16,347 nt of DNA from Candidatus Nanopusillus sp. (GTDB lineage Archaea > Nanobdellota > Nanobdellia > Nanobdellales > Nanobdellaceae): positions 1 to 16,347 of the forward strand of contig JAWDMD010000011.1 of assembly GCA_046536775.1 (NCBI GenBank), read 5' to 3'. This document shows, in pieces, positions 3,788-16,212 of the stretch (position 1 is its first letter; the number at the start of each line of letters is the position of its first letter). The position numbers and the translations under genes were made by a program. Below the pieces are notes generated by a model. It did no database searches and was not told where the DNA came from. It worked only from the letters and a program-made list of their open reading frames with translations.

Positions 3788-4624
3788 ATGTTTGCACATG
3801 CTCAGGGTGAATATGATAAATCAAAATGGATAATAGTAGGAATTCCATCTGAAATTGGTAGTTTATCTCATATAAAAAATTATATTGAAGGACCTGAATC
3901 AATTAGAGATGCATCATATAGAATATTTTCTCCAGTATTTGGGGATATAAATATGGAAGAAATATACGATTATGGTGATATAGATTTAGAAGATATAAAA
4001 GATCTAGACAAATTATATGAAAAAATATATAATGAAATTAAAAAAATATATAGGAAAGATAAAAAATATATATTTTTGGGAGGAGATCATTCAATAACAT
4101 ATCCAATATTAAAAATTGTTAAAGAAAATTGGGAAGATTTTTATTTATTATATTTTGATGCGCATCCAGACATTCATCCAGATCCTTATCCAAATTATCA
4201 AAGTTTTATTTATCATTTAATAAAAGAAAATTATATTGAACCTGAAAAAATTATTTTTGTTGGTATATCTAATCTATCATTTGAAGAAAAGAATATAATA
4301 AAAGAATGGGGGATAAAATATTATGATCCTTTATATATTTGGGATAATATAAAAGAAATTTCAAGAGAAATATCAAATATATTGGAAAATAAAAATTTAT
4401 ATATTTCAATTGATGTAGATGTATTTGATACAGGATGTGGGCATTGGTTGGAAGGTATTGGAATTAGACCATATCATTATTTTAAGATTATAAAAGAATT
4501 AAGGAATGCTAATTTAATTGGTTTTGATTTGGTAGAATTATTTTCTAATGAGGTATGTGATAATTTAGCTGCAAAAATTATTACTGAATCAATAGCAATT
4601 TTTAATAAATTTATGCAATCTTAA
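3788..4624 (+). CDS. Arginase-family ureohydrolase (agmatinase-like)
   Basis: The family motifs GGDHSITYP, FDAHPDIHP, SIDVDVFD and a late DLVEL are present, so all six Mn-ligand positions (H, D-H-D, D-D) are retained. The segment after DVDVFD (TGCGHW) departs from the usual DPxxAPG. Substrate cannot be assigned from sequence alone. Confidence 0.8.
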   Translation: MFAHAQGEYDKSKWIIVGIPSEIGSLSHIKNYIEGPESIRDASYRIFSPVFGDINMEEIYDYGDIDLEDIKDLDKLYEKIYNEIKKIYRKDKKYIFLGGDHSITYPILKIVKENWEDFYLLYFDAHPDIHPDPYPNYQSFIYHLIKENYIEPEKIIFVGISNLSFEEKNIIKEWGIKYYDPLYIWDNIKEISREISNILENKNLYISIDVDVFDTGCGHWLEGIGIRPYHYFKIIKELRNANLIGFDLVELFSNEVCDNLAAKIITESIAIFNKFMQS

Positions 4625-5258
4625 AATATGTTTGATTAATTCTTTCTAAATATACTGTTGCAAGTTGATAAAATGTAATATTATTTATCGAATAACATGG
4701 TATATAATTGCATATAATATTTCCATTTGTATTTTCTGTACATGTAATATTTTCGGATAAATTTGTTGGAAATAGAAATACAAATGTTTGATTTGAAGTA
4801 CTTTCGTTACTCAAACAAAAATAATATAAAAAATAGTAAAAATCTGAATAATAATTTTTACATATGGTTAATTTAATATAATCCAAAGAATAAGCTATAG
4901 AAATTGGATATTCATATGTATTGCAATTTCCATTAAAATTTATTATTCCAAAACCATAATTGTCTATTTCTGCTCTAAATGCATAAGGAAATATTGTACA
5001 ATTTGGAAGTTCATTATAATATGTTTGATTAAATTGTTCTATTTTTTCTAATGTTGTAAAATATACTGGATAATTTGGATATCCTAAACAATTTGGAGAA
5101 AATAAATCATATAGTATATCCTGTTCATATGAAAAAGATGTTTGCTCTTTATAATTTGTTAAATTTATATTGGAAAATACAGCTAATAAAATTATCATTC
5201 CAACTAAAAATAATACAATTAATATTGTTATAAATACTATAGATAATTGTTCTTTCAT
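4611..5258 (-). CDS. Exported cysteine-rich protein with an N-terminal hydrophobic anchor or pilin-like leader (last gene of the cluster)
   Basis: The N-terminus MKEQLSIVFITILIVLFLVGMIILLAVF has a short charged n-region followed by ~23 hydrophobic residues. There are 8 Cys (hand count) and several N-X-S/T sequons. The 3' end overlaps the convergent ureohydrolase gene by 14 nt. Confidence 0.7.
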   Translation of the reverse strand: MKEQLSIVFITILIVLFLVGMIILLAVFSNINLTNYKEQTSFSYEQDILYDLFSPNCLGYPNYPVYFTTLEKIEQFNQTYYNELPNCTIFPYAFRAEIDNYGFGIINFNGNCNTYEYPISIAYSLDYIKLTICKNYYSDFYYFLYYFCLSNESTSNQTFVFLFPTNLSENITCTENTNGNIICNYIPCYSINNITFYQLATVYLERINQTYFKIA

Positions 5259-5267
5259 CCTATTTAT

Positions 5268-6575
5268 TTATCTTATAATTCCACGTCCTCCACCTCCACC
5301 ACCAGATCCACCCCCACTATTTTGTCCACATGAAGATTGACTAGGTGGTTGTGGTACACATTGATTTGGGAAAGATATGGTTTCTGGACATGTTTGGCTT
5401 GGGCATTCTCCAGGTGAACAGACAGGACATAGAGAAGAGCCAATTATACAATTATAACATTTAATTGAGATTGAATAATAATATGGAAATGTATATGTTA
5501 ATTCGCAATCTTGTTGATTTACATTTACATTACCACAACCATTCTCATAAGAACATGAATATTGCTGATTTTCTAATGTACAACTTTCAGATATTACTTG
5601 ATTGTTTGTTAGATTATACGTTTCAGTACATTTATATATACAATTTAAAAAATAATAATATGTTATATTTTCATAAAAAACAATAGAAGAAATTATTATT
5701 GTTTGTGGATAAGTATTGCCATTATAATATACATTATATTGGTTATCAGAACATTTTAATATTACCCTGCATGCAATTCCCTGTGGATATAAACATGCTT
5801 CGCATGATGGAATATTTACACATCGATATGGAATTATCGTTTCATTACATTGAATATAAGGATTATTTGAAAATTGCTCAAAATCTTGTGCACAATTATT
5901 GGTTGTAACATGATTATATATTTCATTATAGCAATCTTGATATGAGCATTCTGAAAATTCTCCATTTTCAGAAAATTGAAATGCTAAATTATATAAATAA
6001 AATGCAGGATTGTTTGTTATATTTGATGTAGTTGCATATGGAATTATAGAACCTGAAGAAGGACCAGTAATATTTATATATAATCCTTGAACATAAACAG
6101 GAAAATTATAATTGTATTCTCCAGAAGTTATATTACTGCAATCTCCAAAAACTCCTGCTTGATAATTATTTGAAAAATTGAAAGATATGTTATAAGGATA
6201 ATAATATTGATATGCAGTTAAATATTGTCTTCCAAAACTTAATAAAGTTTCAAATCCAGAAGTTAGCAAATTATTATAATATTGAAGTGCATTTTCACAT
6301 TTTTGGGGTAGTTTACACCAGTAGGGATAAGAAGCCCAATTTTCCTTCCCCCATCCATTTGTCCCTGCTACATATGATTCTGCATAACCTTCTTGTGTTA
6401 ATAATGTTTGTAAATATCCTAAAAAATAGTTTGATAATGTAGATAAAGAAGTAAACCTATTAAAAACAATATTTTGATTATAATTATACGTCAATGCATA
6501 AAAAGATAAAAGAATTATTAATATAGCAATTGTTAGAAATAAAACTACATAAATGACTTCTGCCTGATTCTTCAT
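5268..6575 (-). CDS. Exported, extremely cysteine-rich protein with a Cys/Pro-rich C-terminal module and a poly-Gly tail
   Basis: The N-terminus is MKNQAEVIYVVLFLTIAILIILLSFYAL. There are 26 Cys (hand count). The C-terminal 63 aa are CYNCIIGSSLCPVCSPGECPSQTCPETISFPNQCVPQPPSQSSCGQNSGGGSGGGGGGRGIIR. The start overlaps the upstream gene's end by 4 nt. Confidence 0.75.
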   Translation of the reverse strand: MKNQAEVIYVVLFLTIAILIILLSFYALTYNYNQNIVFNRFTSLSTLSNYFLGYLQTLLTQEGYAESYVAGTNGWGKENWASYPYWCKLPQKCENALQYYNNLLTSGFETLLSFGRQYLTAYQYYYPYNISFNFSNNYQAGVFGDCSNITSGEYNYNFPVYVQGLYINITGPSSGSIIPYATTSNITNNPAFYLYNLAFQFSENGEFSECSYQDCYNEIYNHVTTNNCAQDFEQFSNNPYIQCNETIIPYRCVNIPSCEACLYPQGIACRVILKCSDNQYNVYYNGNTYPQTIIISSIVFYENITYYYFLNCIYKCTETYNLTNNQVISESCTLENQQYSCSYENGCGNVNVNQQDCELTYTFPYYYSISIKCYNCIIGSSLCPVCSPGECPSQTCPETISFPNQCVPQPPSQSSCGQNSGGGSGGGGGGRGIIR

Positions 6576-9408: not shown

Positions 9409-10238
9409 TTTAGATAATATAAAAGAATAACTAGGCCTATTATTATAATTACTATTATTATTGCTATTGGTAAAACTAAATTAACATTATTACTTTTATT
9501 ACTTACATTTGGTTGTGGATAAATTAATTGCTGATTATTTGTTTGATTGTTTGTTAGATTTACTTGAGTCTGATTTATGCATTTAAATATACCAGTACAT
9601 GATATATAAATAATATTTGGTGGTGGACATTGCTGTAAAAATTCTTGATATAATTGATTTAATGAATAATTATATGGGCATCTAAACCAATCTCCTTCGA
9701 ATGATAAGTTTTCTGGACAATATCCGCACATATATTCTATTTTATATACATCTAATACTGTCTGATATGAAGCATTATCTGTCAAATAAGAAGGTGGTAT
9801 ATATGGTGGATTAAAACATGGATAGATTTGATTTGAACATGGTTGATAATACCAGGGTGTATTTGAACAATTTAGCAAACTATTACATATTATGAGTGGT
9901 GTAGGTATAATTAGGTCTTGATATGCTGATGGAGGAATTAATACATATGGACTGACTAATGTTCCATTTGGATATTCACAATAACTACTATTTACATATA
10001 TTAATCCATAATGAGCACAGAAAGAATATTGGGGTGGTACTTCATTTTCATAATATTGTATAGCATCAAAATATGTACCATTTACAATACAATAAGAACC
10101 TGTACTATTTGTATAATATGTTCCTCCGCCATATTCACAATAAACTGCTAATGGATTTATCATGGAATGTATATTATAAAGTAAAGATATAAAAATAATT
10201 ACAAATAATAATATTTTTCTATTGTGTGAGAGTAACAT
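9405..10238 (-). CDS. Type I membrane protein: Sec-type signal peptide, Cys/Pro-rich ectodomain with a tentative tandem DUF333-like motif, and a C-terminal TM anchor
   Basis: N-terminus MLLSHNRKILLFVIIFISLLYNIHS. It is followed by INPLAVYCEYGGGTYYTNSTGSYCIVNGTYFDAIQYY and a weaker repeat, FCAHYGLIYVNSSYCEYPNGT. These resemble the NPAsvYC..GG....G.C....G pattern I recall for DUF333. There are 14 Cys. The C-terminus is LVLPIAIIIVIIIIGLVILLYYLK. Confidence 0.7.
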   Translation of the reverse strand: MLLSHNRKILLFVIIFISLLYNIHSMINPLAVYCEYGGGTYYTNSTGSYCIVNGTYFDAIQYYENEVPPQYSFCAHYGLIYVNSSYCEYPNGTLVSPYVLIPPSAYQDLIIPTPLIICNSLLNCSNTPWYYQPCSNQIYPCFNPPYIPPSYLTDNASYQTVLDVYKIEYMCGYCPENLSFEGDWFRCPYNYSLNQLYQEFLQQCPPPNIIYISCTGIFKCINQTQVNLTNNQTNNQQLIYPQPNVSNKSNNVNLVLPIAIIIVIIIIGLVILLYYLK

Positions 10239-11829
10239 TTTGGATTGCTATAACTAAATAAGGAAATGATAAGCCATAAGGAGATTGATCAAATGGTACG
10301 TATACATATCCATCTTGTATCAAGTAAACACCTCCACATGGTTCACCAATTTCTTCACTACAAAACGTATAGTTTGAGTAAAGTTTGTGGCATATTTTTA
10401 GATATTTCTCATAACATAACTGATAATTTAAATAATATTCATAGCACTCCTCCATAAATATATTATAAAGAAGGACGTGTGGTCCACCACTTTGATCGAG
10501 AATATAGCATTCTGATACGTCTCCCCACTGGTTTTCAAATATCCAACAGTTGGGAGTCCCATATACTTCTTGGCATAGTTGAGATTGTTCGTCATATCCA
10601 ACTAATAGCATAGAATGTCCAGTGCTTTCTATAAATCCATTAGGGTTAGGATATATATTTGGATTAGATCCGCCTGTCCCCCCCAGTATTCCACCAACTA
10701 CTAATGGTCCATAACATAATAAATCTTGGATTATTTGTTGATCGGATAAAGGTCCATTTTGTGAAAGAAAGATAACGCCTTTCGAATAATACAATGGAGA
10801 GCTAGGTCCATTATAATTAAAATTACATACATCACCTGGATAGCTATCATAGTTCTGATATTCTTCTTGTGGACAATGATTTCCTAAAGTAGATTCATAA
10901 TAGCTCCATCCAGGATCAGGTGGTATACCATATTGAGATGTATAATATATTTCATAATATAAACCAGAGATTATAGGAATACCATTTTCAGCAAAAATAG
11001 TCTCACTACCCTTACAACCACTATTGTACTCACAATAACTTGGAGCGTTTGGATAACCATTATTACATTCTATTGCTAAATATGCTGGAGATAGTTGTAA
11101 TCCTTCATTGGGTTTATCATTTCTTATCATATATACTGAAGCAATTCCATTTGCACTAGCAAATGCCCAGCAATCTCCACAATATCCTTGATCTCCTATT
11201 GGAGGTAAATAATTATTTCCATTTACATCACCCCAGAAAAAACTTGTCTGTCCAGTATATTTAACTAGACATTGAGCATTTTGATTAATATTGTTGTTAT
11301 TTCCTTGATTATTTCCTCCATTATTATTACTACTTCCTCCATTGTTTTGATTATTATTGTTTTGATTGTTTTCTGGAGTTATATATATAAGAGTTCCATT
11401 TGGTAAATATTCATTTAATATTGCAATTGAATTTTGAAGATTTGTTGTAATAAAAACAGTATTATTTGTACTAACAAGATATATATAATTGTTTGGATAT
11501 AGAAAACTCACATTTTGATTATTATTATATAATGTTACATTCTTGTAAAAATTAATTGTATAATTGTTATTATTATATTGTATTATTAATTCAGTACCAT
11601 TTGTATATAATATAACTCCACTTGGTATATTAACTTTTACATAATATGTACCTTGAATACTATTTATTGTATTCTCTAAATTTTGTAAATTATTAATAAA
11701 ATTTTCAAATATTAAATTTTCTTGTTGTTTTTTAACATTCATAGAATATTGATAATATATTATAAAAGCTAAAGATATAATTACTAATATTATTGCTACT
11801 GAAAGCAAATTTAATTGATATCTTTTCAT
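10219..11829 (-). CDS. Papain-family (peptidase C1) cysteine protease fused to an N-terminal pilin-like anchor, a beta-rich N-domain and an Asn/Gly linker
   Basis: DQGYCGDCWAFASANG (Gln214, nucleophile Cys220 followed by Trp; Cys codon at 11170-11172), GHSMLLVGYD (His405) and ENQWG (Asn433) reproduce the papain Q-C-H-N motif set in the correct order and spacing. The N-terminus is MKRYQLNLLSVAIILVIISLAFIIYY. There are 17 Cys (hand count). Confidence 0.85.
   Translation of the reverse strand: MKRYQLNLLSVAIILVIISLAFIIYYQYSMNVKKQQENLIFENFINNLQNLENTINSIQGTYYVKVNIPSGVILYTNGTELIIQYNNNNYTINFYKNVTLYNNNQNVSFLYPNNYIYLVSTNNTVFITTNLQNSIAILNEYLPNGTLIYITPENNQNNNNQNNGGSSNNNGGNNQGNNNNINQNAQCLVKYTGQTSFFWGDVNGNNYLPPIGDQGYCGDCWAFASANGIASVYMIRNDKPNEGLQLSPAYLAIECNNGYPNAPSYCEYNSGCKGSETIFAENGIPIISGLYYEIYYTSQYGIPPDPGWSYYESTLGNHCPQEEYQNYDSYPGDVCNFNYNGPSSPLYYSKGVIFLSQNGPLSDQQIIQDLLCYGPLVVGGILGGTGGSNPNIYPNPNGFIESTGHSMLLVGYDEQSQLCQEVYGTPNCWIFENQWGDVSECYILDQSGGPHVLLYNIFMEECYEYYLNYQLCYEKYLKICHKLYSNYTFCSEEIGEPCGGVYLIQDGYVYVPFDQSPYGLSFPYLVIAIQNVTLTQ
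11278..11373 (-). repeat. Low-complexity Asn/Gln/Gly linker inside the protease gene
   Basis: Encodes ENNQNNNNQNNGGSSNNNGGNNQGNNNNINQN (residues ~153-184), between the N-terminal domain and the peptidase domain. At DNA level it consists of imperfect att/gtt/tcc-type triplet reiterations. Confidence 0.8.
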
Positions 11830-11865: not shown

Positions 11866-12306
11866 TTAACTTGGATTTTCTATATAAACAGTTACTTCTG
11901 TTGGAGATGTTTTTTCAACAAGTAGTGGTATTTTTTCATTTGTATTTCCATACGATAATTCGTAAAATAATCCAGAAGTATAATATTGAATTGTACTATT
12001 TGTTGTATTTATTATTACATTGCATGGTAATGTATAATTGTAATATTCATCATATATATAACAACTTAATAAATTATTATTAGCATAAATATAATTTAAA
12101 TATTTGTTTATTTCAATATTAATATAAAATTTTGTTCCAGTATTTGAATAACATACCCTTTCAATTGTTGTATACAAATTTTGACATGATGAAATATCCT
12201 GATATAATAATTGAGTCTGATTATTTATACTTGAAAATTTAAAATATAAATATAAAGATAAACCAAAAGCAATAATTGTTACAATTATCCAAAACCACTT
12301 CTCCAT
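11866..12306 (-). CDS. Small exported protein with an N-terminal hydrophobic helix (minor-pilin-like), function unknown
   Basis: 146 aa. The N-terminus is MEKWFWIIVTIIAFGLSLYLYF, there are 4 Cys, and the remainder is beta-strand-like and Y/N/I-rich. Confidence 0.65.
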   Translation of the reverse strand: MEKWFWIIVTIIAFGLSLYLYFKFSSINNQTQLLYQDISSCQNLYTTIERVCYSNTGTKFYINIEINKYLNYIYANNNLLSCYIYDEYYNYTLPCNVIINTTNSTIQYYTSGLFYELSYGNTNEKIPLLVEKTSPTEVTVYIENPS

Positions 12307-12308
12307 TT

Positions 12309-12722
12309 TTATCCTTGAACATTAATATAAACATAATTTCCTGCCGAATATACTAATATATATTCTCCCGTATTTATATTATAATTGCAATTTTGCATTA
12401 CTACATTTGGATCTATACTACTTACATTATTTATTAAATCCTGACATGTAAATGGTTCCCCCTGATAATTAATTAAATAACAAAGGCCCTGGGCTTTTTT
12501 ATAATAGCATGCTACTACATCCATTGCAACATCTTGTATTGAAGTTACATTTGTTTCTACTACAGTTTGTGTATTATTATATTTTGGCATTATACTACTA
12601 ATGTAGGAAGTTATATTTCCTCTTAATAAAAATATTATTCCTAAAATTACTACTGTGACAATTATTCCTATAATTATTAAAAATGTATAATTAATTGGAA
12701 GTTCTTGAGACTTTATTGCCAT
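12309..12722 (-). CDS. Small exported protein with an N-terminal hydrophobic helix (minor-pilin-like), function unknown
   Basis: 137 aa. The N-terminus is MAIKSQELPINYTFLIIIGIIVTVVILGIIFLL, and there are 4 Cys. It carries a D..xxVVACYxxxxxxLCY motif similar to that of the neighbouring 159-aa protein. The C-terminus is YILVYSAGNYVYINVQG. Confidence 0.65.
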   Translation of the reverse strand: MAIKSQELPINYTFLIIIGIIVTVVILGIIFLLRGNITSYISSIMPKYNNTQTVVETNVTSIQDVAMDVVACYYKKAQGLCYLINYQGEPFTCQDLINNVSSIDPNVVMQNCNYNINTGEYILVYSAGNYVYINVQG

Positions 12723-13192
12723 ATTACAATATAACTATTGTTGTATATTATAAATATACTATTGTATGGATATATATTTCCATCACTATTATTTAAATGG
12801 AATATAATATTATTTGGATTAAATGTAGTATAATTTTGTATATATTGAATTAATATTGATGAATTCAGAATAATATTCTCATCTATATAAACATCATAAC
12901 ATATATTAAATAATTTATTTGTATTTACATTATTATTGTAGCAATTTAATATTAATCCTGTTATATCTGAATAAATTGTATCATTACTTTCATTTGTATA
13001 CATAATATTTATCGCTGAAGGATAATATTTTTCACATGATGGAGAAAAACCGCCTTGTGATATTAATGTTTGACAATAATATGCTTGAGAATTGCCAAAG
13101 AATTTTGTAAAAATAATATCTAATATAACTACAACAGATATTATTGCTATTATAATAATAAATACAGTATCTATTGCTATATCATTCTTCAT
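12713..13192 (-). CDS. Small pilin-like protein with a probable class III signal (A|ID junction)
   Basis: 159 aa. MKNDIA-IDTVFIIIIAIISVVVILDIIF shares the small-residue-then-ID junction with the 255-aa protein (G-ID). There are 4 Cys. It contains ...ITGLILNCYNNNVNTNKLFNICY, and the C-terminus is IFIIYNNSYIVIWQ. Confidence 0.65.
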   Translation of the reverse strand: MKNDIAIDTVFIIIIAIISVVVILDIIFTKFFGNSQAYYCQTLISQGGFSPSCEKYYPSAINIMYTNESNDTIYSDITGLILNCYNNNVNTNKLFNICYDVYIDENIILNSSILIQYIQNYTTFNPNNIIFHLNNSDGNIYPYNSIFIIYNNSYIVIWQ

Positions 13193-13473
13193 ATATAATT
13201 AATACTTCCGTTATAAATATATATAATTCTATAGCCTGCAGGTATTGTTATTCCATTTATTGTACAATTTTCATTAAGAAATACTTTAATATTAATTATT
13301 TCCTGAAAACTTTTATTATATAGATTTTCTAACTGTTGGCAATTAATTGTTTGTATACTATTACCACTTAAATTATTTTTTATATTATAAATATAATAAA
13401 AAGAAAATAAGCCAGCAGCTATAATTAATATAAAAGTTATTATAATCCAATATATTGATTGTTGCAATTTCAT
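13189..13473 (-). CDS. Small exported protein with an N-terminal hydrophobic helix (minor-pilin-like), function unknown
   Basis: 94 aa. The N-terminus is MKLQQSIYWIIITFILIIAAGLFSFYY, there are 2 Cys, and the C-terminus is GYRIIYIYNGSINYI. It has 4-nt ATGA-type overlaps with both neighbours. Confidence 0.6.
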   Translation of the reverse strand: MKLQQSIYWIIITFILIIAAGLFSFYYIYNIKNNLSGNSIQTINCQQLENLYNKSFQEIINIKVFLNENCTINGITIPAGYRIIYIYNGSINYI

Positions 13474-15440
13474 AATTGTATACTTGTTGGTAAATATGGG
13501 CCAAATACTGTATATACTATCAATATTCCTATTATTGAAAATATTACATAAAATATTGTTCCAAATAATAAATTTCTACCTATATAATATGATGTCATTG
13601 TATTATCAAATCCATATTTTATTCCAGCACTCATATATGAAGTTATTATTACATATTCTATAAAGAATATACCAATTATTGCTTCAAAAAATGTTGGTGG
13701 TATTAAATTGTATAGATTAAATGTATTTACAATGAAATTGAATAAGTTTGTTCCTCCACCAAGACCAAAAGATTGGTCTATTAATTGAAAGAAATATGCA
13801 AGTGCAAAAAGCATAGAAACTACTCCATTATTGAAAATTGTAACCATTGCAGAAATTAATGGTACTAAATTTCTTGATGTCATGTCTATCAATCCAATTA
13901 TTTCATTTAATATTTTTCTTACATTATATCTTATATTATCTACATTTTCTAAATTTGTTGATACATTATATGCAATTTTTGATAAAACCTCAGGACCTTT
14001 TGATGCAGAAGTGACTAAAAGTTGCATAGATTCTCTTACTAATTTTGATGGATATAGATTTAATGAACCAATTTTTGGATCAAATACAGAAATATTTAAA
14101 TCATAACCTCTTCTTAAATTATATAGTGTAGTTTTTAGAAAGTTTTCCATAACTCCAGATGATTTTATTATTTTATAATTATAATATGTTTTTTCAATTA
14201 CTATTTCAAATGGATATCCATCTTCTAATAATGATGCGAATTCATATACAACAATTGGAAACTCATTTTCTATTTCTTCAATTTGATATATTTTTTTAAC
14301 TTTTTGGAAAGATGTTAAATAATAGTAAGATCCCACACCCAAACCCAATCCTAAAGGTAATGTTAAAGTTAAAACAGAATATATTAATGCTCTATCCTGG
14401 TAAACTATATTTAAATACTCACTCAAAAATCCCTGTGGAATAAATGTAATCCTTATAGCTAGAGAAACTAAATGATATATTCCCAAAACTGCAATTGATC
14501 CTAATATTATTGAAATTATTATTGCTGGAACTTCTTTATTTCCAATTTTAAATTTTCCAGGTTTTGGTAAATCTCTTGCTAGGGATAAATCAGGAACAGA
14601 AAATGCAAATGGATTTTTTGATAAGAAATTTTGAATTATTAGAAATGTAATAACTGGTAAAATTATTATATATGAAAATGCTATGAAATAGAAACTTACG
14701 GTATTTAGTAAAAATACAGATATTATTGGTAGCATCATCAAACTAACTATTGGCATCATTACTAAGAAAGATACTATAACTGTTGCAGGTTCTCTTAAAG
14801 CATCTACATATAACTGGGATTTTTCTAGGGATTTCTTTAATACCCAACCTAAAATTCTATCTAATAATCTATTTATGTCATCAATAGATGTTTTATATTT
14901 AATGTTTACAATATGTGTCATTGCATATACAAAATCTGGACTTAAATAAAACCATCTTCTCTGATAATATTCTAATGCTGATTCAATATCAGTAAATTTA
15001 TTTGTTTCTAAATTATATAATAGTGATCTAAAGTCTGTTGCAATATAACCTTTCATGTAATATGCTACATATTTTATTCCATTCTCTAAATTAGGATTTC
15101 TTTTTAGATATAATGATAAATATAGAATTATCCATACAATTTCTGATGTTACTTGTATTCTAACAACCTGTGTATAGAATATTGGATAATATGCAAAATA
15201 GAATGATAAAATTAATAAAGATATTAACAAAGAAAAAGCAAATTGAAAGCTTACAAAACTTAGAATGAAATATATGATTATAGAAAATGATATAAGAGTT
15301 ATTACAGAAGAAAATATATTATCTGGATTTGTATTTAATCTATTTAACCATAAATGAAATGCATATTTTTTATATATTGGACCAGGAGCTTTTAGTTTTA
15401 TTAAATTAAAATTATTATAAAAATATTCAAAAAAATTCAT
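13470..15440 (-). CDS. FlaJ/ArlJ-TadC-PilC-like polytopic membrane platform protein of a type IV filament system
   Basis: 656 aa with the FlaJ architecture: TM bundles alternating with two soluble helical domains. Domain 1 ends in ...LYVDALREPATVIVSFLVMMPIVSLMMLPI, like the T2SSF ..EP..i....vg.iv....lPi segment. Domain 2 has EFPIVVYEFASLLEDGYPFE...LYNLRRGYDLNISVF...YPSKLVRESMQLLVTSASKGPEVLSKIA, like the T2SSF l..G.sl..a...fP..l...i..ge.sG.l...L pattern. It has no cysteine. The match is by eye, not by HMM. Confidence 0.65.
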   Translation of the reverse strand: MNFFEYFYNNFNLIKLKAPGPIYKKYAFHLWLNRLNTNPDNIFSSVITLISFSIIIYFILSFVSFQFAFSLLISLLILSFYFAYYPIFYTQVVRIQVTSEIVWIILYLSLYLKRNPNLENGIKYVAYYMKGYIATDFRSLLYNLETNKFTDIESALEYYQRRWFYLSPDFVYAMTHIVNIKYKTSIDDINRLLDRILGWVLKKSLEKSQLYVDALREPATVIVSFLVMMPIVSLMMLPIISVFLLNTVSFYFIAFSYIIILPVITFLIIQNFLSKNPFAFSVPDLSLARDLPKPGKFKIGNKEVPAIIISIILGSIAVLGIYHLVSLAIRITFIPQGFLSEYLNIVYQDRALIYSVLTLTLPLGLGLGVGSYYYLTSFQKVKKIYQIEEIENEFPIVVYEFASLLEDGYPFEIVIEKTYYNYKIIKSSGVMENFLKTTLYNLRRGYDLNISVFDPKIGSLNLYPSKLVRESMQLLVTSASKGPEVLSKIAYNVSTNLENVDNIRYNVRKILNEIIGLIDMTSRNLVPLISAMVTIFNNGVVSMLFALAYFFQLIDQSFGLGGGTNLFNFIVNTFNLYNLIPPTFFEAIIGIFFIEYVIITSYMSAGIKYGFDNTMTSYYIGRNLLFGTIFYVIFSIIGILIVYTVFGPYLPTSIQL

Positions 15441-15444
15441 TACA

Positions 15445-16212
15445 TTAGCTTGTTGTGCTTGGTATATTATTTAACTGGGAATATGGTACTTGCAATAAGA
15501 ATTGACATAATGGCATTCCATTTGCATTATTACTTATACCCAATGCTGCGCAATTTCCATTAACTATTAATACTCCAGTACTAACATTAACTGTTAAATT
15601 CAAATTACATCCATTTGCACTATTATAATAGTTAATAATCTTTAATAATGCACCAAATACCTGGTTTGTAATCCATGTTGGTAATTGTGCAGAACATTGT
15701 ACTGGACCTGGATTTAATATTGAAGATGGAGAAGAAATTTGAATGTTTGCTTGTCCGGATGCTACATTAAATGATGTAGTAGGAGAATAATTTCCGAATA
15801 CATAACTTGTTGCTTGTTCTGGGCTATAATATAAATTATCAATATAATTTTGACATTCTATATACATGCAATCGAGAGGTGTTATTGTATATCCCTGATA
15901 TTGACATTGACTAGAAGGGCCACCATATAATTGTAATAATACACTGCATGGGACAGCATTTGAACAAATATAATACCCAGGACTTACCTGTACAAGTCCA
16001 TTTCCTATATCTTCATACTTTGTACAAAATGTTGCTTGATCTGAACAATAACTTGAGCAATCTGAAACTGCCTGTTGTATTTGTGTATTTGATATTTGAC
16101 TAATCTTTGATGATTGCTGCTGGAATAACTTAATTACAACAACTGCTACTACTAACATTATTATTATTACAAATATTAACTGTACAGCCATATCTATACC
16201 CCTTCTTTTCAT
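15445..16212 (-). CDS. Type IV pilin-like protein with a canonical archaeal class III signal peptide (candidate major filament subunit)
   Basis: MKRRG|IDMAVQLIFVIIIMLVVAVVVIKLF has a basic n-region, Gly at -1, then ~25 hydrophobic residues and a Q-rich helix extension (QQQSSKISQISNTQIQQAV). The globular part carries 12 Cys (hand count). It is the first gene of the cluster, directly upstream of the FlaJ-like gene. Confidence 0.7.
   Translation of the reverse strand: MKRRGIDMAVQLIFVIIIMLVVAVVVIKLFQQQSSKISQISNTQIQQAVSDCSSYCSDQATFCTKYEDIGNGLVQVSPGYYICSNAVPCSVLLQLYGGPSSQCQYQGYTITPLDCMYIECQNYIDNLYYSPEQATSYVFGNYSPTTSFNVASGQANIQISSPSSILNPGPVQCSAQLPTWITNQVFGALLKIINYYNSANGCNLNLTVNVSTGVLIVNGNCAALGISNNANGMPLCQFLLQVPYSQLNNIPSTTS

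Follow-up and report, generated by a model that had tools for sequence, protein, structure and literature searches.

What does a papain-like cysteine protease do in the midst of a pilus-type gene cluster of a nanoarchaeal symbiont? This question is raised by the gene g7, which lies in a 16,347-nucleotide stretch of Candidatus (Ca.) Nanopusillus sp. DNA (contig JAWDMD010000011.1 of assembly GCA_046536775.1; the whole stretch is called the window below). An original prediction had described a C1-type cysteine protease mounted on a pilin-like N-terminal helix through an Asn/Gly linker. A computational follow-up was performed, and we estimate with a probability of roughly 55% that the g7 product is an active protease of pilin-like build, displayed on the cell surface and at work there as part of a pilus-type system. 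The predicted open reading frame (ORF) was found to be real, and it lies on the minus strand, which had not been stated; its start codon in the ORF list of the window is ATG. The gene, its modules and its key codons are as follows, with the basis of each assignment in parentheses.

10219..11829, minus strand: whole gene g7, stop included, encoding a 536-aa modular pilin-like C1A protease (ORF list, PF00112, 41 full-length homologues)
11752..11829, minus strand: residues 1–26, charged leader MKRY, Q5, N7 and the 21-residue hydrophobic stretch L6–Y26, taken as a putative degenerate class III signal with alpha1-N (42-sequence alignment)
11659..11751, minus strand: residues 27–57, predicted conserved amphipathic continuation of the N-terminal helix, alpha1-C-like (AlphaFold2, alignment)
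11401..11658, minus strand: residues 58–143, predicted eight-stranded beta head plus helix 131–141, with five of the eight sequons (AlphaFold2, sequon count)
11272..11400, minus strand: residues 144–186, predicted disordered N/Q/G-rich tether of strain-variable length (AlphaFold2 confidence, alignment)
10222..11271, minus strand: residues 187–536, C1A peptidase domain without propeptide (Pfam, PDB alignment, Foldseek, substitution rates)
11170..11172, minus strand: codon of the catalytic Cys220; Q214 lies six residues upstream, and W221 follows it directly (alignments)
10615..10617, minus strand: codon of the catalytic His405 (alignments)
10531..10533, minus strand: codon of Asn433, in the Asn-x-Trp motif (alignments)
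10339..10509, minus strand: residues 441–497, hypervariable Cys-rich helical insertion (alignment, substitution rates, AlphaFold2 confidence)
10963..11001, minus strand: residues 277–289, 13-residue insertion right after the GC.G[GS] motif (alignment columns 330–355)

The search with the Pfam family PF00112 (Peptidase_C1), which the original prediction had proposed, gave a significant match over residues 205–437 (52.6 bits, with the family cut-off at 20.7; E 8.5e-14). When all PDB sequences were searched with phmmer, g7 matched C1 enzymes only (cathepsins K, L, H and C, falcipain and papain; best E 5e-5), and in the alignment to cathepsin K, the Cys, His and Asn-x-Trp motifs of that enzyme fell on QGyCGdCWAF, GHsmLLVGY and wifeNqWG, respectively. 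The positions predicted for these motifs were right (DQGYCGDCWAFAS at residues 213–225, GHSMLLVGYD at 404–413, ENQWG at 432–436 and the Cys-rich stretch at 461–500). Q214, C220, W221, H405, N433 and W435 are all present in g7; C220 and H405 are invariant among the 42 family members, at least 90% of which also keep Q214, N433 or W435 at each of these positions. Two homologues, P0038 and P0039, carry Ser in place of the oxyanion-hole Gln (Q214) and Phe in place of Trp435. The claim of an unambiguous C1 catalytic set was thus borne out by Pfam, by the PDB alignment and by the conservation in 42 sequences.

A structural model of g7 was built with AlphaFold2 on 42 homologues, and the predicted local distance difference test score (pLDDT) of the catalytic core in the full protein was mostly 80–93. 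A Foldseek search with this model gave 97 PDB matches at E values of 1e-3 or lower, and the best 50 of the 97 were all C1 peptidases; cathepsins C, K, L, B and X were matched at E 6e-9 to 1e-6 with a target-normalised template modelling (TM) score of ~0.6. This fold match implies that the Cys and His residues would be juxtaposed in three dimensions. The ratio of nonsynonymous to synonymous substitution rates (dN/dS) of the catalytic core was ~0.3 in nine pairwise comparisons (Nei–Gojobori method), indicating purifying selection. On the basis of the intact catalytic residues, the fold match and this dN/dS, the domain is taken to be a functional papain-family domain under selection. Sequence comparison confirmed the C-terminal ~350 residues as a genuine but divergent papain-family (C1A) peptidase. 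By the Pfam threshold, the catalytic residues and the modelled fold, it is a member of the family, and peptidase activity is predicted for it.

A Pfam scan detected no match to the I29 propeptide family (PF08246) in g7, in agreement with the original prediction, and the mature-domain start FFWGDVNG directly adjoins the disordered linker. The lack of a propeptide had been regarded as an oddity and C1 peptidases as uncommon in archaea; neither view agrees with the survey of Kordis & Turk 2023 (PMC10380794), in which short prokaryotic C1A peptidases are commonly without a propeptide and C1A peptidases occur at low copy number in all major archaeal lineages, including DPANN. The Cys-rich segment after Asn433, for which both an insertion and an extension had been considered, turned out to be an insertion at about residues 441–497, which follows ENQWG and precedes the canonical C-terminal strands GVYxxQDGYxYVPF...IQNVT. 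No other part of the protein varies as much as this insertion (mean identity 0.39; dN/dS 0.4–1.05), which is missing from the homologue P0041 in the alignment. In the model, its pLDDT was 50–70, and three short helices were predicted at this low confidence within residues 458–494. The 13-residue insertion at 277–289 was found only in the window protein and its closest relative, P0001, in the family alignment. It follows the GC.G[GS] motif, which we take to correspond to the C63-N-G-G substrate-binding wall of papain. Hypervariable insertions placed near the active-site region in this way would be suited to a target that is not the same in every host.

The g7 protein contains 17 cysteines and eight N-x-S/T sequons, five of which fall within the beta head (residues 58–143), and in the C-terminal sequon both N531 and T533 are invariant in the family. 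These features suggest an extracellular location, so that the C1 domain would probably lie outside the cell.

The homologue search covered 5.8 billion proteins, and all 41 homologues obtained were full-length and had the same architecture; the named ones come from Ca. Nanobsidianus stetteri, Ca. Nanopusillus and Nanopusillaceae. Nine loci, all from Nanopusillus, Nanobsidianus or Nanopusillaceae, were obtained when each GTDB species was scanned through one genome; the cultured Ca. Nanopusillus acidilobi 7A is among them. A search with a profile of the catalytic domain alone gave nothing beyond its own family save one remote eukaryotic protein (E 6e-5). Because this profile found almost nothing outside the family, the C1 domain, as judged from its sequence, is an isolated and very divergent clade, found only in Nanopusillaceae and in Nanobdellota archaeon YN1. 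The C1 annotation of the gene is already public: the orthologue Nps_00495/Nst1_643 was listed, from automatic annotation, as 'Peptidase C1A subfamily' (arCOG03611), and Nps_00495 of N. acidilobi as having one transmembrane domain and no signal peptide, by Wurch et al. 2016 (Supplementary Data 1). In the searched literature, no mention was found of the pilin-like carrier, of the operon as the missing pilin set, with degenerate signals, of a nanoarchaeal TadC system, of the carrier swap in YN1 described below or of a link to the attachment organelle.

The protease gene belongs to a run of 12 minus-strand genes that extends from 16212 down to 4611, with overlaps of 4–20 nt or gaps of no more than 36 nt. 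The other members are as follows; a slash in a signal sequence follows position −1.

15445..16212, minus strand: g1, the first gene, encoding a 255-aa pilin-like protein with the canonical class III signal MKRRG/IDMAVQLIF
13470..15440, minus strand: g2, encoding a 656-aa polytopic, divergent TadC/FlaJ-type (T2SSF) platform (transitive homology, arCOG)
11866..13473, minus strand: g3 to g6, encoding proteins of 94, 159, 137 and 146 aa, each with an N-terminal hydrophobic helix
4611..10238, minus strand: g8 to g12, the rest of the operon (ORF list, Pfam)

The order of the 12 genes was kept in every genome examined, between RNA polymerase/RimK/DUF371 genes and arginase/UDG/S27ae/S24e genes, and synteny extended over at least 10 genomes, including those of the cultured N. 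acidilobi and of Nst1. The class III signal of g1 is canonical for archaea across its orthologues (M[KR][KR]R[GA]/[IL]DMAVQLIF). The g8 product (277 aa) has a Sec-type signal and a C-terminal anchor, the products of g9, g11 and g12 (543, 435 and 215 aa) have pilin-like MKxQ N-termini, and g10 encodes a 403-aa polytopic membrane protein.

The g2 product had no match in Pfam, NCBIfam or a PDB profile search. An exhaustive phmmer search yielded 592 homologues aligned end to end; five of ten sampled homologues passed the Pfam T2SSF cut-off, and four more scored below it. The N. acidilobi orthologue of g2 was reported to have nine transmembrane domains and to belong to arCOG01814 (Wurch et al. 2016), which is 'Pilus assembly protein TadC' of type IV pilus (T4P) subclade 4F (Makarova et al., PMC4858521). 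Based on this transitive T2SSF homology and the arCOG of the orthologue, g2 was assigned as a TadC-type platform. It lies four genes upstream of g7 in every genome examined and is among the most conserved proteins of the operon (92–97% within Nanopusillus), whereas g7 is the most diverged, with 65% identity to the N. acidilobi orthologue (L008) against 79–96% for the other eleven. The proposal of a type IV filament-like operon was therefore upheld by a TadC/T2SSF platform and a canonical class III signal.

A profile search with the N-terminal module of g7 detected a free-standing homologue of 141 aa, P0201 ('YN1_4400'), in the complete genome of YN1. It is 51% identical to the g7 module over residues 2–129 (E 4e-32) and ends where the g7 linker begins. 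The YN1 operon is otherwise unchanged, and its Peptidase_C1 protein (579 aa; Pfam 66.1 bits) is built on a different carrier. Residues 1–142 of this protein are the g6 module (63% identity to g6 of the window; E 3e-61), followed by an extra beta-rich segment of ~110 residues and a Pro/Ser linker; its C1 domain (residues 285–577) is 39% identical to that of g7 (E 2e-66) and keeps all the catalytic residues. By these alignments, the catalytic head is carried by the N-terminal module of g7 (g7N) in Nanopusillus and by g6 in YN1, and the other carrier stays a separate small protein in each case. The swap marks g7N as an autonomous unit with tether and protease as its cargo; at the sequence level, carrier and effector are thus shown to be autonomous modules joined by a linker, as in modular pilins. 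Under the Rosetta-stone argument, g6, g7N and the protease may also be parts of one assembly. The swap gives new support to the idea that the protease is presented on a carrier, and its incorporation into a filament, also part of the original prediction, would be a further step. In YN1, the g8 gene (with its Sec-type signal, 'NPLAVYC.YGGG...' motif and C-terminal anchor) is duplicated, and the 283-aa and 172-aa copies (L014:9153-10004 and L014:10439-10957) flank the free N-module gene.

Synonymous divergence (dS) was uneven along g7. Between the window and the homologous locus L001, dS rose from 0.12 for the N-module to 0.69 for the core and 2.4 for the insertion, and the several-fold lower dS in the N-module than in the core was seen for the same genome pairs (window versus L001 and L005–L011). 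This unevenness hints at recombination that reshuffles the protease head between strains, and the gene looks mosaic. A more distant cluster, L016, has a TadC that is 35% identical to that of the window, and an incomplete gene stands at the position of the protease gene (L016:13424-14608, plus strand). Its product has a transmembrane helix, then a helix/beta module and a long linker rich in G, S and N; the domain after the linker runs as far as HETGHAIGLLADQY (HExxH), where the contig ends. The HExxH domain had no support in Pfam or PDB, and a metagenome scan gave no full-length copy; that a metalloprotease may stand in place of the cysteine protease in L016 is recorded as a lead only.

When residues 1–143 were modelled alone with AlphaFold2, the pLDDT was 90.4, and a helix at residues 3–57, eight short strands at 62–128 and a helix at 131–141 were predicted; helix 3–57 was also single in the full-length model. 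In this prediction, the module has the general 'lollipop' layout of pilins, with a helix of ~50 residues and a beta head. The beta-rich module originally placed at residues ~27–150 was therefore right for the head only, residues 27–57 being predicted as helix. The N-module is the most conserved part of the protein (mean pairwise identity 0.80 versus 0.73 for the core; dN/dS 0.1–0.3), and residues 27–57 are nearly invariant across the family. Its supposed likeness to the neighbouring small proteins was undetectable by sequence profile: hhalign and hmmsearch comparisons with every operon neighbour and with the distant clusters aligned the hydrophobic helix only, and this claim was abandoned. A low-complexity tether follows the module as had been proposed, with limits corrected from 32 residues to about residues 144–186. 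It is predicted to be disordered (pLDDT 26–48, partly below 30) and varies between strains from a few Asn to a G/S run more than 60 residues longer (P0038 and P0039). From its ~40 residues, a fully extended tether was calculated to span ~12–15 nm.

The N-termini of the protease orthologues read M[KRN][RKG]xQ[LI]N, with M1, Q5 and N7 invariant in the 42 sequences, and the motif M[KR]xQx[SNE] is common to five operon proteins (g3, g7, g9, g11 and g12). In addition, a homologous cluster, L018 (GCA_038999725.1), was reached through TadC homologues; its TadC scored 343 bits against the window-family profile. Small proteins of this cluster, within L018:12124-14799, start with MKG/IALSTIA (homologue of g4, 29.7 bits), MKG/LALEF (homologue of g5), MKG/IALEY and MSKKG/MSALEIVF (g1-like), so that g4 and g5 of the window match proteins with the canonical signals MKG/IAL and MKG/LAL. 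Also in L018 (20832-22115, plus strand) is a VWA-domain protein that begins with MRG/QTSLLIKGIYIILVLV, a canonical class III start (MRG/QTSLLIKG...); its sequence would make it an archaeal equivalent of the modular pilin with a pilin-vWA architecture known from bacteria. Two orthologues of g12, from two genomes, read MKG/QFS. Given the canonical KG/IAL and RG/QTS forms in homologous clusters, the terminus of g7 looks like a degenerate class III signal, and the MKxQxN/S termini of the window look like class III signals without the −1 glycine.

Several observations weigh against a pilin-like protein acting in a pilus-type system. The canonical [KR][GA] pair at −2/−1 is absent from g7, which reads MKRY/Q and lacks Gly/Ala at −1; most orthologues have Y, N, D, L or S at this position, and P0022 (MKKG/QLN) alone has G. 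No Pfam pilin or class-III-signal family matched any of the operon proteins; the invariant Q5 and N7 at the head of the hydrophobic stretch L6–Y26 can be compared with QxSxE of Pfam PF04021, yet none of these families scores. In addition, a Foldseek search with the N-module gave no significant match to solved pilins or archaellins. Neither an assembly ATPase nor an A24 prepilin peptidase was present in the locus of the genomes examined; ATPases have been reported elsewhere in nanoarchaeal genomes, and Makarova et al. (PMC4858521) recognised no A24 prepilin peptidase in two nanoarchaeal genomes. Finally, the co-culture proteome of N. acidilobi contains no abundance value for the g7 orthologue or for any of its operon partners. 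Of the predicted pilin-type leader at residues 1–26, the hydrophobic helix stands, and the −1 Gly/Ala is missing. With neither the expected −1 residue nor a structural match, g7 does not qualify as a bona fide type IV pilin. The lost glycine is consistent with, and no proof of, altered or absent prepilin processing in this lineage. The C1 protease as a stand-in for the missing prepilin peptidase was also considered and rejected: the domain would be extracellular (disulfides, sequons and a place C-terminal to the transmembrane segment) and the leader cytoplasmic.

The reading that we favour, of g7 as a surface-displayed protease of a pilus-type system, would work as follows. The gene would share a transcript with those of a TadC-type platform, a pilin with a canonical class III signal and other pilin-like or membrane proteins, and the hydrophobic N-terminus, whether or not its leader is removed, would hold g7 in the membrane. 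In the manner of a minor or 'modular' pilin, the protein might then join the TadC-based pilus-type assembly, or at least sit beside it, and the tether would give the protease head reach to proteins outside the cell. The favoured targets would be surface layer (S-layer) or other surface proteins at the contact between symbiont and host, whether they belong to the host or to the symbiont itself. Acidic, reducing conditions are optimal for papain-type enzymes, and the habitat of N. acidilobi is acidic. This habitat is an anaerobic hot spring, which fits the optimum of such enzymes, and we infer that g7 would be active at acidic pH under anaerobic conditions.

In cryo-electron tomography (cryo-ET) of Nanobdellales (YN1, N. 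aerobiophila and YN4), a cone replaces the S-layer of the symbiont, the host membrane protrudes via a portal across the host S-layer, and a 7–8 nm filament of the attachment organelle 'displac[es] the host S-layer'; according to the authors, the molecular parts of the organelle are unknown, and the reports mention neither this operon nor a protease (PMC11104419, PMC11420986 and the 2026 YN4 preprint). The operon may conceivably encode the pilus-type part of this organelle (filament and/or portal), with the tethered C1 protease cutting the S-layer locally; we regard this as doubtful and put it forward tentatively. A cut in the S-layer, the host's or the symbiont's own, would let the filament and the host membrane pass, and the hypervariable insertions close to the active site would track the diversity of host S-layers. 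S-layer opening at the host contact would then be the event that we infer for the protease.

The helix of g7 could also be a type II signal anchor that is never polymerised, holding a general membrane-bound ectoprotease that would scavenge peptides for an auxotrophic symbiont or turn over surface proteins, in an operon that is a 'surface protein island'. Cysteine cathepsins serve nutrition in many parasites. An anchor would agree with the missing −1 Gly/Ala, with the fact that no prepilin peptidase is known in nanoarchaea and pilins were not matched in structure, and with the annotation of the orthologue with a single transmembrane domain and no signal peptide (Wurch et al. 2016). However, Q5 and N7 are invariant before the transmembrane segment, and the 143-residue module is conserved beyond what an anchor needs. 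Moreover, the motif is common to other operon proteins and is related to canonical class III signals in homologous clusters, YN1 retains the N-module as a 141-aa protein in its own right and has the protease on g6 instead, and the TadC linkage is tight and conserved. We consider a mere anchor somewhat unlikely. Release as a soluble protease, with the N-terminus acting as a Sec signal cleaved, for example, after Y-S29 and the N-module, linker and protease secreted together, is suggested by the conserved YQYS after the hydrophobic stretch, which resembles the 'YN(I/Y)xS' end of the Sec-type signal of g8. This is very improbable, since the 21-residue hydrophobic stretch has transmembrane length and in the model runs continuously into the conserved helix to residue 57, the −3/−1 residues (Q, S) are poor for signal peptidase I, and the orthologue is annotated without a signal peptide.

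The remaining alternatives concern the protease head. It might process the operon's own pilin-like, cone or S-layer subunits outside the membrane and not attack the host, and might thereby also strip the symbiont of its S-layer locally, at the place where the attachment organelle forms. Pilin processing or degradation was proposed by Makarova et al. (PMC4858521) for papain-fold surface peptidases linked to archaeal T4P, the cone seen by cryo-ET stands in place of the symbiont's own S-layer, and fusion to the g6 or the g7 N-module implies proximity to operon partners. The hypervariable insertion and the strain-specific 13-aa insertion at CNGG, however, fit a variable (host) target better, and such a maturation role is judged unlikely. 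A catalytically dead binding module, in which the papain fold is kept as an adhesin or lectin-like head, would account for the Ser and Phe substitutions in P0038 and P0039 and for the great divergence of the domain from characterised C1 enzymes (best PDB match at E 5e-5, as above). It hardly agrees with Cys220 and His405 being invariant in 42 of 42 sequences, Asn433 conserved in at least 90%, all catalytic residues kept in the divergent YN1 copy (39% identity) and a core under purifying selection, and it is scarcely to be expected.

The flanks of the operon and its last genes were also inspected. An ORF at 110-1558 on the plus strand encodes the C-terminal 482 aa, with the transmembrane-anchor end, of a very large protein (1415 aa in L001 and 1461 aa in YN1). 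By gene order, its N. acidilobi orthologue is Nps_00425, which is annotated 'S-layer domain' (arCOG02079); by this annotation, a putative S-layer-type protein is encoded ~3 kb from the end of the pilus-type operon. At 4611-4624, g12 abuts and overlaps the arginase gene, and likewise in L004. L001, YN1 and N. acidilobi have a gene of 344–349 aa between g12 and arginase, which is absent from the window; in N. acidilobi, it is Nps_00465, annotated with 11 transmembrane domains. The g11 product (5268-6575, minus strand; 435 aa) is very Cys-rich and has a Pro/Ser/Gly-rich tail ending ...PPSQSSCGQNSGGGSGGGGGGRGIIR, and a proline-run ORF at 5170-5340 on the opposite strand is the antisense of g11. 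No tRNA or Rfam family was detected within the window.

Surface proteases of DPANN ectosymbionts are not without precedent: Hamm and co-workers reportedly described in 2019 the SPEARE protein of Ca. Nanohaloarchaeum antarcticus, a surface protein with protease domains for which action on the host envelope was proposed. The SPEARE proteins are said to be giant and multi-domain, with serine-protease and other domains, to be unrelated to g7 in sequence and to lie outside pilus operons. Another parallel is found in the bacterial modular pilins of Raynaud et al. 2021 (PMC8179133), in which PilB of S. sanguinis combines a pilin module with vWA, and pilin-S74 and pilin-M26 peptidase architectures were predicted from InterPro. 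Like these, g7 has a small pilin-type module (leader, hydrophobic alpha1 and predicted beta head), a linker and a bulky effector; it is encoded among pilus genes, and display of the effector by a filament is proposed. Unlike them, it is archaeal, lacks the IPR012902 N-methylation motif and the −1 Gly, and has a long disordered linker; its C1A cysteine protease effector is not among the architectures named in PMC8179133, and its incorporation into a filament would be by analogy. With the short and multidomain prokaryotic C1A peptidases (PMC10380794; arCOG03611), g7 shares the Gln/Cys/His/Asn set, the lack of I29 and a low copy number, but it differs from them in the pilin-like carrier, the hypervariable Cys-rich insertion after Asn-x-Trp and the strict linkage to a TadC operon.

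The operon as a whole can be compared with loci of T4P subclade 4F. In 4F loci of the halobacterial type, the ATPase arCOG01818 and the TadC arCOG01814 are followed by several small predicted pilins (PMC4858521). The window operon likewise has the same TadC arCOG, as assigned to the N. acidilobi orthologue, and then a row of small single-transmembrane pilin-like proteins. It is unlike the 4F loci in that the adjacent VirB11-family ATPase is absent, so that no ATPase is encoded in the locus, the class III signals are degenerate, and large pilin-like proteins (215–543 aa) and a protease are present. Thiol-peptidase-fold surface enzymes are found among archaeal pilus genes elsewhere: transglutaminase-family (papain-fold) surface peptidases of arCOG02164, arCOG09555 and arCOG03450 are linked to clade 1 archaeal T4P (PMC4858521), and a role in surface processing or degradation was proposed for them, as here. 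However, they belong to another family and to other archaeal lineages, and no fusion to a pilin-like protein has been described for them.

How DPANN ectosymbionts cross proteinaceous S-layers, and what the attachment organelle is composed of, are explicit open questions in the cryo-ET reports (PMC11104419, PMC11420986 and the YN4 preprint). The putative pilins of this operon would have gone unrecognised because of their degenerate class III signals, and the present finding offers a concrete candidate gene set in two cultured systems, N. acidilobi with Acidilobus and YN1 with Sulfurisphaera. With g7, the idea of the 'modular pilin' would come to cover archaea and an effector of the C1 protease type, and its tethered protease is a testable candidate for opening the protein shell of the host at the site of attachment.

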